This document shows, piece after piece, positions 2,793 through 50,371 of a stretch of DNA of 64,000 nt. Both the position numbers and the translations under genes were made by a program. The first letter of the stretch is position 1, and every line of letters begins with the position of its first letter. Under the pieces are notes generated by a model. That model searched no databases. It was given only the letters and a program-made list of their open reading frames with translations, and was not told the DNA's origin. The stretch comes from Byssovorax sp. (lineage in GTDB: Bacteria > Myxococcota_A > Polyangia > Polyangiales > Polyangiaceae): assembly GCA_046351295.1 (NCBI GenBank), contig JAXLYT010000035.1, forward strand, positions 13,452 through 77,451, written 5' to 3'.

Positions 2793-2862
2793 TCGCGCCG
2801 TTGTTTCCCCGCGGCCGAGCCGGCGATACGCTCGCTGCCTCGACCCCCTGACGGCCCGTCCC

Positions 2863-4437
2863 ATGCGCGCATATCTGCTCTCGATTCCCCTGCTCCTCGC
2901 CGGCTGCTCGCTGCCGATGCCCCCGCCGCCTCCGGCGCCCCCCTCGCTCCCGGCGGTGCTCCTCGCGCCCCCGCCTTGCGAGAAGAAGCCCGAGGCGCCC
3001 GGCCGGATCACCTTCCGCGTCACCCGCGCCCCCGACCCGAGCGGCGCGCCCATGAGCGGCCGCCTCCTCGTCTTCATGTCGAGCGACAAGGAGCGCCAGC
3101 CCGTGCTCGGTCCCGGCTTTGGCACCCTCGATCCGGCCTTTGCCGCGGCGGACGTCGACGCCCTCGCCCCGGGGCAAACCATCGACCTCGACCCGGACAA
3201 GATGGCCTTTCCTCGTCCCTTCTCCGAGCTCCCCGCGGGCGACTATCAAATCATGGCCGTCCTCGACCCCGATCACGGCTTTCCGCACACCCTTCAGGTA
3301 GACAACGACCTCTACGGCCCTGTCGAGCAGGTGACGATCGACCCGGCCCACGCCGGCACCATCGCGCTCCGCCTCGACCAGAAGAGCACGCATGGCCCCC
3401 TCATCCCGCCCGAGGGCGTCGTGCCCGTGGCTCTCCCGAGCCTCAAGCTCTCGGCCTTCTTCGGCCGCCCGGTGCAGATCGAGGCCTTCGTCCTCCTCCC
3501 GAAGACCGCCGACCAGAAGAAGCGCTTCCCCACCGCCTATCTCATCCCGGGCTTCGGCAGCTCCGATGAGAGCCGCCTCCGCCGCGCCAAGATCCTCCGC
3601 GAGGCGATGGATAAACCCCCCTTCAGCGACATCGCGCTCGTCTACCTCAAGGGCGAAGTCCCGACGGGCCATCATGTCTTCGCCGACTCCCCGGGCACCG
3701 GCCCCTGGGGCGCCGCCCTCGTCGAGGAGCTGATTCCCATGCTCGAAAAGCTCTTCCCCCTCATCGCCCGCCCCGAAGCCCGCTTCCTCACGGGCCACTC
3801 CTCGGGCGGATGGTCCTCCCTCTGGCTCCAGATCAACCACCCCGACTTCTTCGGCGGTACCTGGTCCACCTCCCCTGATCCGGTGGATTTTCACGCCCTC
3901 TTCGGCACCGATGTCTCGCCCGGCGCGACCGACAACTTCTACCGCGATCACGACGGCAAGCCCAAGAGCGGCTGGCGCGACGGGCCGAAGACGCTCTTCA
4001 CCTTCGAGCAGCTCATCCGCTACGAGGACGTGCTCGGTCGCGACGGCGGTCCGTTCTCCACCCTGGAGTGGGTGTTCTCCCCCCGCGGCCCGCACGGCAA
4101 GCCCTTGCCCCTCTTCGATCGACGCACCGGCGTGCCCGACCCGGAGGTGCAGAAGGCCTGGGCGCGCTGGGACATCCACCATGTGCTCGAATCCCGCTGG
4201 AGAGAGCTCGGTCCCCGGCTCAAAGGCAAGCTCCATGTCTGGGCCGGCGCGGAGGACAACTTCCACCTCGAAGAGGGGGTGAAGAGGCTCTGCGCCTTCC
4301 TGAAAGAAAAGGGCAGCGACGCCACCTGCGAGATCGTCCCCGGCAAGGACCACTTCAACCTCTACGGCCAGAGCTATACCGCGGAAGATGGGCTCCTCGT
4401 CCGCATCCTCCGCGACATGCTGGCCAAGAAACGCTGA
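2863..4437 (+). CDS. lipoprotein, alpha/beta-hydrolase 'putative esterase' family
   Basis: A lipobox LLLAGCS follows the signal peptide. A GHSSGGW nucleophile elbow (GxSxG) is present. Overall similarity is to the esterase D / enterochelin esterase family. Confidence 0.65.
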   Translation: MRAYLLSIPLLLAGCSLPMPPPPPAPPSLPAVLLAPPPCEKKPEAPGRITFRVTRAPDPSGAPMSGRLLVFMSSDKERQPVLGPGFGTLDPAFAAADVDALAPGQTIDLDPDKMAFPRPFSELPAGDYQIMAVLDPDHGFPHTLQVDNDLYGPVEQVTIDPAHAGTIALRLDQKSTHGPLIPPEGVVPVALPSLKLSAFFGRPVQIEAFVLLPKTADQKKRFPTAYLIPGFGSSDESRLRRAKILREAMDKPPFSDIALVYLKGEVPTGHHVFADSPGTGPWGAALVEELIPMLEKLFPLIARPEARFLTGHSSGGWSSLWLQINHPDFFGGTWSTSPDPVDFHALFGTDVSPGATDNFYRDHDGKPKSGWRDGPKTLFTFEQLIRYEDVLGRDGGPFSTLEWVFSPRGPHGKPLPLFDRRTGVPDPEVQKAWARWDIHHVLESRWRELGPRLKGKLHVWAGAEDNFHLEEGVKRLCAFLKEKGSDATCEIVPGKDHFNLYGQSYTAEDGLLVRILRDMLAKKR

Positions 4438-6313: not shown

Positions 6314-7546
6314 CTACGACCCGAGCACCCACTGCCCCGCTGCGGCCATGGCGATCACCACGGCCCACGAAGGTGCCTTCCACTGCTCCAGCAGGCCAAA
6401 GGCCAAGAGCGCTGCCACCACATCGCGGCTCGTCCGCACGCTCTCCGTGAACACGGGAGTATAGAGCGCGGCGAGCAGCACCCCCACCACCGAGGCATTC
6501 GCACCCGCGAGCGCGGCCTGCGCCCAGCGCTTCTCGCGGATTCGATGCCAGAATGGCAATGTCCCGCCGATCAGCAACCACGCAGGCAGGAAGATCGCGA
6601 CGAGGCATAATACCCCGTTTTGCCAATGCGGCCCGTCGGGGCTCATCGCCGTTCCGAGATAGGCCGTGAAGGTGAACATCGGCCCGGGGAGCACCTGCGC
6701 GGCGCCGTAGCCGGCCAGGAATTGATCGTTGGTCAACCACCCGCGCGGCACCACCTCGGCGCGCAGGAGCGGTAAGACCACGTGGCCGCCGCCGAACACG
6801 AGCGATCCGGAGCGGTAGAAGCTGTCGAAGACAGCGAGCGATCGCGAGCCCGTCGCCGACGCGAGCGCGGGCAAGGCCACGAGCAGCGCACCGAACACGA
6901 GCAGCGCCAGGGCGGCGGCGACGTGGCCGCGCGCGCTCACCGGCGAGGTCGGCGCGCCTCCTGCGGTGGCGCTCTCGCGGTAGAGCCGGAGCCCCGCCAG
7001 CGCGCCGGCCGCGATGACGCCGAGCTGTGCGAGCGAGCCGGGCGCGGCGAGCAGCAGCGAGGCGGAGAGCAGGCAGATCGTGATGCGCGCGCGATCGGGG
7101 CAGAGCTTCTTGCCCATGCCCCAGACGGCCTGCGCGACGACGGCCACGGCGGCGAGCTTCAGGCCGTGCAGCCAGCCGGCGGTTCCGAGCGAGGAGAGGC
7201 GGGCGACGCCGTAGGCGAAGGCGATCATCAGCAGGGCAGAGGGCAAGGTGAAGCAGAACGAGGCGGCCATCGCCCCGAGCAGGCCGGCGCGGTGCATCCC
7301 GATCGCGAACACCACCTGGCTGCTCGCGGGGCCGGGGAGAAACTGGCAGAGCGCCACCAGGTCGCCGAGGTGGGCGTCGTCGAGCCAGCGGCGCTTTTCG
7401 ACGAGCTCGGCGCGGAAATAGCCGATATGGGCGACGGGTCCGCCGAACGACTGGCATCCGAGGCGCAGGAACGTCCACGCCACCTCACCGGCGAGGCGAA
7501 GAGGGGCCGGAGGCGGCCCGGCGGCGGGGGGCGCGGGCTCGCTCAT
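6314..7546 (-). CDS. chrA: chromate transporter ChrA (CHR family)
   Basis: Two homologous halves each carry the CHR signature, for example LGCQSFGGPVAHIGY and VFGGGHVVLPLL. It is a polytopic membrane protein. The start was chosen at MSEPAPP (7546). Upstream ATGs exist. Confidence 0.8.
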   Translation of the reverse strand: MSEPAPPAAGPPPAPLRLAGEVAWTFLRLGCQSFGGPVAHIGYFRAELVEKRRWLDDAHLGDLVALCQFLPGPASSQVVFAIGMHRAGLLGAMAASFCFTLPSALLMIAFAYGVARLSSLGTAGWLHGLKLAAVAVVAQAVWGMGKKLCPDRARITICLLSASLLLAAPGSLAQLGVIAAGALAGLRLYRESATAGGAPTSPVSARGHVAAALALLVFGALLVALPALASATGSRSLAVFDSFYRSGSLVFGGGHVVLPLLRAEVVPRGWLTNDQFLAGYGAAQVLPGPMFTFTAYLGTAMSPDGPHWQNGVLCLVAIFLPAWLLIGGTLPFWHRIREKRWAQAALAGANASVVGVLLAALYTPVFTESVRTSRDVVAALLAFGLLEQWKAPSWAVVIAMAAAGQWVLGS

Positions 7547-49400: not shown

Positions 49401-49488
49401 TCTCGCCATCGCGAATGTCGTCAACGGGTCGTTCTGGCCTCCCCGGCCCGTGACGATCCTGCGCAACACGGGCTTCTGCTCGCCGTGA
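46417..49488 (+). CDS. secreted FG-GAP/VCBS repeat (integrin-alpha-like beta-propeller) protein with N-terminal thrombospondin type-3-like Ca-binding repeats and Cys-rich module
   Basis: The lipoprotein-like signal is MRSPRSAARNVFALWLVSGFAACSAG. The Ca-binding repeat is DPDGDGVLGAADNCPNDVNPSQLDSDGDGLGDACD. The ADLNGDGxxDLAVAN repeat occurs 14 or more times. Confidence 0.75.
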   Translation: MRSPRSAARNVFALWLVSGFAACSAGGGEEGRLPPAGGERVGAAAQQQVAAADPDGDGVLGAADNCPNDVNPSQLDSDGDGLGDACDPTCRIIRRGVFGTVNDTQVGWAAPFANYGGATIIATGGSAGEDKHALLRFDLSAIPRSAEVTSAGVTIKTLKGAGVVRAHRATDFWDEAWTDGAGFAGSFAAAALSSFPGTAGAHSFDIVALATSWVRYPKLNEGLLFEQDAGSTTFFKTSEYAVVADRPSLYVCYRTRECLPGTGDCDGTPSNGCESALTTEAHCGACGHACGGAETCVGGACVPTSCPRWLARPEPFHACGHDPQAIARGDLNGDGKLDLVTADLGDSGVSVLLGHGDGTFAPAVAYPTGLAPRSVAIADLNGDGASDLAVANAGDGADPASQNVAVLLNHGDGTFTAAAPHAAGPSPYSVVAADLNGDGRVDLATANEVMNGTVSVLLNQGNGAFAAPLALAAGAEPLTVAAGDFNADGLIDLASANIGDETVSVLLNAGSGSFAPAVSVWAGPSPYALVAADLNDDGRADLAAANLFFTWEDGSTTGGVTVRYGWPDGHFDIIPPPVPYVISGPTSFKVAMAAQSIAAEDLDGDGLPELVVSSAQVSAVSVLHNIGTSFTVIDHAAPVSPGLALGDMDGDGRSDIALAAPDESWPPSYNVRLLINQGGGAFPGEQIRIGATPTSIVAGDFVGDSALDIVVTSAGDGDVALVRGGGDFLLVDRYPVGVAPLAVTAADLNGDGHEDIAVANSGSDDVSVLLGQANGTFSPAVSYPVDAAPWGVAAADLNGDGRVDLAVTSSDNNTVSVLLGLGNGAFSPAVSYPAGAGARGIIAVDLNADGRIDLAVSNTLGDDISLLMNQGSGTFAAPIHVATGPYPHGIAAADLNADGFPDLAVSTYSGVSVLLGQAGAPAAPVNIPLPSSQDAVAIADLNGDGRLDLAVTGWMDAYVLLNQGNGAFGAPLVHPGGGQGYGIAAADFDGDGATDLAIANVVNGSFWPPRPVTILRNTGFCSP

Positions 49489-49800
49489 ATCGAGCTCGAG
49501 ATCTCGGACATTCGCCCGGCGAAGACAAAACGCTCGCGAGAGGCGATGTCGCGCCGGGCGGAGGGATCGCCGCGCAAACGGAACAGGCTCGCTTGACAAA
49601 CCGGAGAATGTCGTCAAGCTTCCGACCCACGACCAGGTAGGTGACGGGCTTCTCGACGACGCGACCTCTTCCCTCTCTCGCTCCCCTCCACGGAGCCCTG
49701 CGCACGGGCGTTTGATCGCCTGTGCAGCGTCGTCGCCGTCTCCCGGGCGGCGGCACGGCCCTTGGTCCGTGCTGCCGGTCACCTCAACCTGTTCGTCCCC

Positions 49801-49873
49801 CTGCGGGGTAGTAGGAGTGGCCCCTACGCCGGGATAGCCTCCCGGAGACGCTCGTTCGACCCGAGCCTCCGCA
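49801..49873 (+). tRNA. tRNA-like cloverleaf (73 nt), probably a tRNA pseudogene/remnant: canonical stems and T-loop but atypical D- and anticodon loops
   Basis: The acceptor stem is tgcgggg/ctccgca (7 bp, one G-U). The D stem is gtag/ctac. The anticodon stem is ccggg/cccgg with loop atagcct (would-be anticodon AGC, position 37 = C). The variable loop is agac. The T stem is gctcg/cgagc with the canonical T-loop ttcgacc. U8 and G18G19 are present, but A14 and A21 are replaced. No CCA is encoded. Confidence 0.4.
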
Positions 49874-50038
49874 ACCGTGCGCGCTGCGCCCCTTCGCGCG
49901 GCCCACCTCCCACGCTGTCCGCGTGTCCGCCTGTCCGCGCGCGAGCGGTGGTTCGCCCGCGCGCGCCGGCGTCAATCGTTCCTGGGCGCGCTGCGCCCGG
50001 CGGGTGGGCCGATATCGCCCGACCCGAGGGAGACTTCC

Positions 50039-50371
50039 ATGCTTTTTGATCGACTCGATAGATCCCGGCTCCGGCGCGACATCGCCGAGCTCACCCTTCA
50101 ATGCCTCTCGCTCAAGCAGGTGTTGCGCCGCACCTGGACCGAGCCCATGGCCGAGAGCCAGCGACGTCTTTTGCGCGCGCAGAGGAACGTCACCGAGCTC
50201 CTCGTGCTGCTCGCTCTCTCGCGCAAAAGGCTCCATGTGCGGCGCCCGCCGCGCGACCTCCCCCCGTCGGAGGAGGCGTGGAGCGCGGAGGCGCACAACC
50301 TCCGCATCGCGGAGCGGGTCGCCCGGGATTATGCGTTACCCTCGGAGCACCAGGAGATCGCCGCGCCATGA
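50039..50371 (+). CDS. hypothetical small protein, translationally coupled to tatD
   Basis: It is a 110-aa ORF ending in ATGA overlap with the next gene. No family was recognised. Confidence 0.4.
   Translation: MLFDRLDRSRLRRDIAELTLQCLSLKQVLRRTWTEPMAESQRRLLRAQRNVTELLVLLALSRKRLHVRRPPRDLPPSEEAWSAEAHNLRIAERVARDYALPSEHQEIAAP

Follow-up and report, generated by a model that had tools for sequence, protein, structure and literature searches.

Several described systems share a component with the locus reported here, a tRNA-like element of probable initiator-tRNA descent that lies in the leader of a small open reading frame (ORF) and tatD, within 64 kb of Byssovorax sp. DNA (contig JAXLYT010000035.1; this whole stretch of 64,000 nucleotides (nt) is called the window). 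The bacterial initiator tRNA(fMet), for instance that of Escherichia coli (metZ/metW/metV and metY), has in common with the element the acceptor helix G2-G7/C66-C71 with the tail A72-A73-C-C, the usual 1:72 mismatch, an anticodon stem rich in G-C pairs, the canonical T loop and G18G19. In contrast, the element has a rebuilt D arm with a stem of 5 base pairs (bp), G14-C21 and pyrimidine11:purine24, a variable region of 4 nt, no encoded CCA and a position inside an ORF; the anticodon loop is CUCAUAA in the initiator and AUAGCCU in the element. The metY gene, too, stands at the head of an mRNA operon, metY-rimP-nusA-infB. In transfer-messenger RNA (tmRNA, SsrA), a tRNA-like domain and an ORF lacking a start codon are likewise joined in one molecule, and the first codon of that ORF is usually Ala (GCN). 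The tmRNA differs in that its tRNA domain is built from the 5' and 3' ends, carries G3:U70, receives Ala and lacks an anticodon arm, and its resume codon is set by SmpB and the upstream sequence, whereas pairing with an anticodon would take that part here. In T-box riboswitches, a specifier codon in the leader likewise pairs and co-varies with the anticodon of a tRNA. The T-box, however, recruits a free tRNA of the cell, responds to the charging of that tRNA and acts on a terminator or a Shine-Dalgarno (SD) helix, whereas here the "tRNA" belongs to the leader itself, which is read as translated, and there is neither a T-box sequence nor an Rfam match.

Pseudoknot I of the internal ribosome entry site in the dicistrovirus intergenic region (IGR IRES) mimics an anticodon stem-loop that base-pairs to a triplet resembling a codon, immediately 5' of the codon that is decoded first, and initiation takes place without AUG or Met-tRNAi (PMC3517527); this would be the nearest functional analogy if our element acts in cis. 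The IGR IRES differs in being eukaryotic and viral, in mimicking a stem-loop only, in lying upstream of its ORF and in having no SD sequence. Regarding arrest peptides, RAPP and RGPP are the most robust bacterial arrest motifs known, being refractory to EF-P and strongly avoided in proteomes, and the related RDPP and RSPP are partly permissive (PMC12992588); structures of RAPP-type arrest have been reported (PMC10951233). Peptides of this type (ApdA, ApdP, ApcA, SecM-like peptides and Streptomyces upstream ORFs) resemble the present leader in having R(G/A)PP in an upstream ORF, with RDPP and RSPP as minor variants, a downstream gene on the same strand and an apparently sequestered SD sequence (PMC12992588, PMC10951233). 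Whereas known arrest peptides have canonical starts, mostly contain a signal peptide or transmembrane segment that senses Sec or YidC, and bear the arrest motif at the very C-terminus, the leader described here lacks both a canonical start and a conserved N-terminal peptide, contains a tRNA-like RNA and bears the motif 15-50 codons before its stop. Published searches for RAPP/RGPP upstream ORFs used annotated proteomes (PMC12992588) and presumably miss such ORFs because these have no canonical start. The components have relatives, but the combination, a start-codon-less ORF whose first codon co-varies with the anticodon of an embedded tRNA mimic, is without a known counterpart, and a search of the accessible literature for tRNA-like elements in connection with TatD, myxobacteria or arrest peptides returned nothing relevant. 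The features of the leader, in window coordinates, are the following.

49593-49621, + strand: promoter-like region read from the sequence, with TTGACA at 49593-49598 and, after 17 nt of spacer, AAGCTT at 49616-49621 as a -10-like hexamer.
49639-49650, + strand: leader motif A-GGUG-ACG-G-GCU, composed of the SD-like AGGUG (49639-49643), 4 nt and the first codon GCU (49648-49650).
49648-50049, + strand: upstream ORF (frame A), 133 sense codons and UGA at 50047-50049, assigned by conserved phase and open frame.
49802-49876, + strand: tRNA-like element, probably initiator-tRNA-derived, assigned by ARAGORN (score 112.0), conservation and covariation.
49803-49808 with 49867-49872, + strand: acceptor strands of the element.
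49811-49827, + strand: D arm of the element.
49829-49845, + strand: anticodon arm of the element.
49836-49839, + strand: anticodon-loop bases A34 G35 C36 C37, complementary to G-GCU at 49647-49650, with co-variation as evidence.
49850-49866, + strand: T arm of the element.
After the acceptor 3' strand, + strand: 3' tail A-A-C-C of the element.
49897-49908, + strand: Arg-Gly-Pro-Pro codons CGC GGC CCA CCU in frame A, an arrest motif of the RAPP/RGPP type.
49907-49911, + strand: CUCCC within Pro-Pro-Pro codons, predicted partner of the SD sequence GGGAG at 50028-50032 in the minimum free energy (MFE) and centroid folds of 49877-50060.

The element recurs with its operon in related bacteria. Among contigs retrieved because they encode TatD homologues at 63-77% identity, the cloverleaf, a homologous small ORF and tatD were found together in loci L001/L002, L005 (Minicystis rosea CP016211), L006, L007, L008 and L009 (Labilithrix sp. 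JAHBWE010000003.1). A pattern scan of one genome per species gave 34 matches, one per genome, of which 33 were genuine and all from Polyangiales, and a metagenome scan that left the anticodon arm unconstrained gave 82 contigs with 66 distinct element sequences; the viral contigs scanned contained no element. The small ORF and then tatD follow the element on the same strand in nearly all loci (~33 genomes). Hardly a base of the element differs across Polyangiaceae and Labilithrix, whereas the intergenic flanks are unalignable except for the TTGAC(A) box, the short motif after it, the cloverleaf and the ribosome-binding site of the small ORF.

Covariation among the 66 distinct sequences supports the helices. 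Every cell of the D, anticodon and T helices is paired (100%), compensatory changes occur at eight pairs (58 cells), and the covariation score was reached in none of 500 shuffles; covariation collapsed in every control with a slid alignment, and the genome set agrees. In the window itself, ARAGORN calls a single tRNA-like gene, 49802-49876 (+), with a score of 112.0 and the label tRNA-Ala(AGC), the "Ala" being due to the anticodon alone, and it finds no tmRNA. In 200 dinucleotide-preserving shuffles of the 64 kb (12.8 Mb in total) there were 15 calls, the best at 106.9 and none at or above 112; because no shuffled call reached this score, the match is beyond chance for such G+C-rich DNA (~70% in the window). 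By contrast, the MFE fold of the element alone is ordinary for its G+C content (z = -1.6). It is conservation and covariation, rather than folding energy, that form the real evidence for a structured element. The Rfam tRNA model had no match at the gathering threshold in the whole window and none at E <= 10 in 49500-50100, and no Rfam family was found for the element region at either cut-off.

These results bear on several statements of the first-pass annotation, which had drawn the cloverleaf by hand. Its position was right to within 1-3 nt, and the details it listed are all seen in the sequence: U8, G18G19, the T loop UUCGACC, G53-C61, the 4-nt variable region, the anticodon loop AUAGCCU (49834-49840, with C37), and C3-G70 where G3:U70 would identify an Ala tRNA. 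Its view that such a fold is unlikely by chance is borne out by the ARAGORN score, which beats the 200 shuffles, though not by the unexceptional MFE; ARAGORN, which it had proposed as a check, scores the element above shuffle noise, and the Rfam tRNA model is silent. The acceptor stem of 7 bp and the D stem of 4 bp have to be revised, since the comparative data give 6 bp (G2-G7 with C66-C71) and 5 bp, respectively. Similarly, A14 and A21 had been reported as replaced, and the bases are indeed G14 and C21, but rather than being defects they form the fifth pair of the D stem, which is A-U in L017.

The ancestry of the element was examined by global alignment with the 27 distinct tRNAs of E. coli K-12 taken from annotated loci. 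The initiator metZ was the closest of the 27, both for the consensus (69, with the next best at 44) and for the window sequence (57 and 36), and the acceptor GCGGGG/CCCCGC with A-A-C-C is identical to that of metZ. Across the 66 sequences the initiator acceptor pairs G2-C71, C3-G70 and G4-C69 are invariant, so that the AlaRS identity pair G3:U70 is replaced by C3-G70 in 66 of 66, and position 1:72 is unpaired in 53 (80%), although the window has U1-A72. The anticodon stem of the window, (C)CGGG/CCCG(G), contains G29-C41, G30-C40 and G31-C39, and these three pairs occur together in 40 of the 66 sequences, with the counts by contig in agreement. The features of the L shape are also retained, namely G18G19, the T loop and the elbow. 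On the other hand, the anticodon is AGC, or AGU or GGC in some relatives, instead of the CAU recognised by MetRS, and the element departs from canonical tRNAs in its mostly unpaired 1:72, its G14-C21 pair and the C (or U) at position 37. Judging from these comparisons, the element is a diverged copy of an initiator tRNA but not itself an initiator tRNA, because the acceptor stem matches, and the anticodon stem in part, while CAU, purine11:pyrimidine24 and a constant third G-C pair are missing. The view of the first-pass annotation that this is a tRNA-derived element and, given its defects, no functional tRNA stands as far as an elongator tRNA-Ala is concerned.

Upstream of the element, the leader shows a conserved architecture. 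In related loci, too, TTGAC(A) precedes a -10-like hexamer at the corresponding position, and in the window the region 49593-49621 may function as a promoter, which a consensus scan missed because the -10 is weak. About 25-35 nt past the -10 box, essentially all loci contain (A/G)GGUG-NNN-GGCU or a close variant; in the window its GCU (49648-49650) is preceded by G49647. An SD complement of at least 4 nt is found 3-10 nt upstream of the first codon in all 82 distinct leaders, and of at least 5 nt in 61 of them, while 72% of control positions had no SD complement. The distance from the GCU of the motif to G2 of the element, which was measured without frame information, equals 2 mod 3 in 89 of 92 distinct loci, although there are 37 spacer lengths ranging from 50 to 458 nt, and in 88 of those 89 loci frame A is stop-free from GCU through the element and for at least 60 nt past it. 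In the window, frame A traverses the tRNA-like element and stops 8 nt beyond the AUG of the small ORF. The frame of the GUG (frame B) mostly ends at GGC UAG or GGC UUC UAG, or at UAG triplets at element positions 8-13, and the third frame ends at U33-A34-G35 of the element.

Many loci carry a frame-A stop 0-2 codons upstream of GCU, in contexts such as AGG UGA CNG GCU (the window, where frame A is closed shortly before its first codon by the UGA at 49642-49644, and others), UGA UAG GCU (L008) and UAG GCU (L083 and L112). The 5' boundary of frame A offers no AUG, GUG or UUG. Because stops lie directly upstream and there is no canonical start, frame A begins at GCU. The GUG inside GGUG is out of frame A and is GUU or GUC in 8 of the 82 leaders; the seven GUU leaders carry GGAGG or AGAGG as SD sequence instead, and L061 has GGGAG 7 nt upstream of the codon. 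The peptides of the spacer are rich in Arg and Ser and are not conserved, and selection appears to act on translation as such rather than on its protein product. A mini-ORF of the form GUG-NNN-GGC-UAG was considered as a functional unit and dropped, as the stop is missing in many loci and the GUG in some.

The longest spacer, 458 nt between motif and element in L009 (~2835-3283), consists mostly of tandem in-frame repeats that encode the repeated peptide ...LHVARGLR...; a separate array of CCAATCCACGGGGGCGC-like repeats lies further upstream in the same locus (~2300-2700).

The first codon of frame A, together with the preceding nucleotide, is complementary to positions 34-37 of the anticodon loop, and the two sides change in concert.

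GGCU leader with AGCC loop: 94 loci.
GACU leader with AGUC loop: L093/L102 and L128.
AACU leader with AGUU loop: L053.
GGCC leader with GGCC loop: L061.
GGCU leader with GGCC loop, by a G.U wobble: L081.

Compensatory or wobble changes thus affect three of the four leader-loop pairs, and the first codon and anticodon occur as GCU/AGC, ACU/AGU and GCC/GGC. In the ACU/AGU lineages the phase to the element differs, and the element has UGG CAG where the majority has UAG UAG; it is because of this replacement that the altered phase stays open. A further pairing, of GGUG with the 3' ACC tail by analogy with the T-box, was rejected, as the tail varies (ACCC, UACU, CUCU, UAGA) and the 3-nt gap makes it geometrically impossible.

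Downstream of the element, frame A encodes a probable arrest motif. The sequence (A/C/S)-R-(G/A/D/S)-P-P was found in frame A of 52 of 88 loci, compared with four in each of the other two frames. The Arg codon is CGU in 10, CGC in 27, CGG in 7, CGA in 7 and AGG in 1, all four GGN and all four GCN codons are used for Gly and Ala, and all four CCN codons for Pro; because the third positions vary freely, selection acts on the peptide. The variants R(G/A/D/S)PP coincide with the set that is experimentally arrest-competent (PMC12992588). The first Pro is CCU in 19 of the 52 loci despite the high G+C content, and the end of the element is at least 15 nt from the stall codon. Regarding the downstream gene, the stop of frame A lies within 32 nt of the start of the small ORF in 38 of the 72 loci where both could be placed, with the small-ORF starts taken from a hidden Markov model alignment and hence approximate, and in 13 further loci frame A shares the phase of the small ORF and runs on to the stop of the latter. 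The SD sequence of the small ORF is predicted to be paired in all 14 placeable loci, and its partner coincides with the stall footprint in seven; by analogy with secM-secA, these folds predict that a ribosome stalled at RGPP would free it. Pairing of this SD sequence with a CCUCCC of the anticodon arm was also considered and dropped, as L006 and L007 change a base without compensation.

A subgroup of metagenome loci with G31.U39 or A31-U39 lacks RxPP (L062, L064, L066-L068, L070-L072, L075, L077, L078, L080, L081, L111, L129 and L130). Its members share a frame-A spacer peptide just upstream of the element, approximately RRRCQ.A...W.WDA.GR.K.AQR.TL, and this conservation could reflect either another kind of arrest or sensor peptide or a structure in the RNA.

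Our preferred reading, to which we attach about as much belief as doubt, is that the tRNA mimic starts an arrest-peptide leader that gates the small ORF and tatD. In this scheme a copy of the initiator tRNA gene would have diverged and been built into the 5' leader of the operon. Transcription would start ~20 nt upstream of the SD-like AGGUG, which would position the 30S subunit with GCU in the P site and no canonical start nearby, and the mimic, either in trans as a processed small RNA or in cis as a folded domain of the transcript, would place its AGC anticodon on this GCU, with C37 also pairing to the preceding G. This pairing would set the frame of an upstream ORF of 100-250 codons. The ribosome would then read the variable spacer and the tRNA-like sequence itself, and would stall at R(G/A)PP a few codons beyond the element, where it would cover a C/U-rich stretch that otherwise pairs with the SD sequence of the small ORF; the end of the upstream ORF, at the start of the small ORF or in frame with it, would drive translation of the small ORF and tatD. 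Their translation would be coupled to the leader because the stall covers the SD-pairing stretch and the ORF ends at, or in frame with, that start. The scheme builds on observed features, namely the covariation of the cloverleaf and of codon and anticodon, the initiator-type acceptor, the frame, the conservation of the RxPP peptide and the lack of a canonical start, and takes from them that the mimic would actually initiate translation. We hold with rather less confidence the more specific proposal of a private initiation event, in which the diverged initiator tRNA, free or IRES-like, starts the leader at GCU, ACU or GCC and RGPP arrest leads to the small protein and TatD; a start at GCU would then probably do without formylmethionine (fMet). 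More speculatively, as arrest peptides act as "monitoring substrates" for the downstream gene product, the mimic may be an RNA monitoring substrate, or simply a substrate, of the TatD exonuclease or of the small protein, which would provide feedback.

A number of points weigh against this preferred reading. Without the identity elements for MetRS (CAU) and AlaRS (G3:U70), a mimic in the P site would probably be uncharged, and we know of no natural bacterial initiation by an uncharged P-site tRNA. The fourth pair, between C37 and the nucleotide at -1, lies outside the normal geometry of ribosomal decoding, and a kissing contact off the ribosome would suit it at least as well. A tRNA gene within the very ORF that the tRNA would initiate is an odd arrangement, and a tRNA domain embedded in cis is unable to reach the peptidyl-transferase centre. 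As to the ancestry, 31:39 is G.U in 16 and A-U in 4 of the 66 sequences and 29:41 is A-U in 6, and the purine11:pyrimidine24 pair of initiators is missing (U11-A24 in 46, C11-G24 in 14 and U.G in 6). Translation of the leader is itself deduced from evolutionary signatures; the spacer has no excess of G+C at third codon positions (0.62/0.62/0.57), and L134 has neither the leader motif nor the open frame. Finally, RxPP is missing in 36 of the 88 loci, and the fold that sequesters the SD sequence, with z = -1.3, recurred in only 7 of 14 loci.

Part of this criticism leads to a purely structural role, in which the anticodon loop kisses the leader through 4 bp and thereby hides or exposes its ribosome-binding region, or the element is a processing or stability signal for RNase P/RNase Z, and the upstream ORF is started by another unconventional route. 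Four contiguous pairs that include position 37 suit a loop contact between RNAs better than decoding in the P site, the features of the L shape (G18G19, T loop and elbow) are kept, and the minimum of 15 nt to the stall codon means that the element could refold behind a stalled ribosome. We nevertheless regard this as rather unlikely, as it leaves the upstream ORF without a start mechanism; the frame is fixed precisely at the codon that pairs, and stops lie directly before it. A structural role also fails to account for a pairing that obeys codon-anticodon rules down to the G34.U wobble of L081, or for the retained 1:72 mismatch and the pairs G2-C71/C3-G70/G4-C69.

A frameshift seems much less probable still. 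Translation would start at the frame-B GUG of GGUG and shift by +1 at GGC-U into the long frame, either through prfB-like slippage or because the element reads GGCU as a four-base codon. An SD-like sequence, 3 nt, the shift codon and a stop make up the geometry of prfB, and here exactly 3 nt separate the SD-like GGUG from the shift codon, with UAG frequently in the A site; GGC UAG or GGC UUC UAG closes frame B in most loci with the long frame at +1, and the complementarity spans four bases. However, GUG is replaced by GUU or GUC in 8 of 82 leaders, L061 is without any frame-B start codon, and in many loci no stop follows GGC, the window reading GGC UUC UCG. The GAC-U of the ACU lineage could not re-pair after slippage, and delivery to the A site requires aminoacylation and binding of EF-Tu, which an initiator-type 1:72 mismatch disfavours. 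We give a negligible probability to the remaining alternatives (a tRNA pseudogene in decay, the remnant of an integration site, a functional elongator tRNA-Ala(AGC)), even with the tRNA-Ala label of ARAGORN and the failure of the Rfam tRNA model to detect the element on their side. The first two had been raised in the first-pass annotation. Decay does not fit with strong purifying selection and covariation across families, seen as near-base-for-base conservation beside unalignable flanks and as compensatory changes at eight stem pairs. An attB/attP remnant is countered by an element that is single-copy in each genome, tied to one operon and not found in viral contigs; the search for direct repeats found no second copy of either half of the element in the window at up to 3 mismatches. 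An elongator would be expected to have G3:U70, whereas C37, A32 and A34 are present, and bacteria tolerate A34 almost only in tRNA-Arg(ACG). The same annotation was right to allow for a tRNA-like regulatory role, and the comparison with relatives that it suggested showed the element and its operon context conserved across Polyangiales. The 550-bp gap that it took to be non-coding is mostly filled by the upstream ORF, which we read as translated.

If the preferred reading is correct, the locus would contain the first natural dedicated non-AUG initiator in bacteria, or a cellular IRES-like mimic in the P site, as well as the first arrest-peptide leader to take its input from an RNA instead of from the localisation of a protein. 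Initiator tRNAs have been engineered to carry altered anticodons, and to our knowledge no natural, evolutionarily maintained pair of a non-AUG codon and its anticodon has been described for initiation. A requirement for canonical starts in searches for arrest peptides and upstream ORFs would hide a class of leaders that are translated. Read as cautiously as possible, the element is a new and deeply conserved structured RNA that overlaps a frame with the signatures of translation. The system can be tested in a cultured strain whose genome is complete, Minicystis rosea DSM 24000, in which the element lies at about 8,624,453-8,624,527 of CP016211 (4440-4514 in L005).

The genes that surround the leader are the following.

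Ending at 49488: FG-GAP repeat protein gene, the upstream neighbour.
50039-50371, + strand: small ORF of 110 amino acids (aa), with the ribosome-binding site GAGGGAGA at 50026-50033 and 49-62% identity in relatives.
50368-51192, + strand: tatD, of the 3'-5' single-stranded DNA/RNA exonuclease family (NCBIfam PRK10425 TatD, E = 2.4e-84).
~51240-53303, downstream of tatD: lytic transglycosylase gene, 687 aa in the NCBI record.

Homologues of the small ORF have 105-110 aa. The protein has no match in Pfam or NCBIfam, and its AlphaFold model, composed of three helices with a pLDDT of 85, has no significant fold match in the PDB. Alignment of the homologues shows invariant Arg, Trp and His residues. 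The strict pairing of the small ORF with TatD suggests that its product is a partner or specificity factor of TatD. The start of tatD overlaps the stop of the small ORF (AUGA), and the encoded protein is identical to the TatD family hydrolase of a Byssovorax sp. metagenome-assembled genome (Polyangiaceae). A mechanical ORF of 1126 aa at 49923-53303 is an out-of-frame Arg/Ala-rich sequence fused to the lytic transglycosylase, whose true start is near 51240.

Three other loci deserve a comment. The sole match of the 21-base pattern outside Polyangiales, L022 (1917-1946, Anaerolineae metagenome-assembled genome JAHCIE010000040.1), has no cloverleaf and is unrelated in sequence; this chance match puts the empirical false-positive rate of the pattern at ~1 in 596 Gb. 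L004 and L010 encode TatD homologues at 71% and 65% identity without the small ORF, the leader or the tRNA-like element, and therefore the module is not universal among related tatD genes; these two could be paralogues, or their lineages could have lost it. L010, a metagenome contig, also contains two adjacent ARAGORN calls labelled tRNA-??? at 7113-7190 (-) and 7378-7452 (-), with 8-nt anticodon loops and the anticodons "agtg" and "agtt". They lie beside a run of small ORFs and a DUF7227 gene, and could be frameshift-suppressor-like or phage tRNAs.

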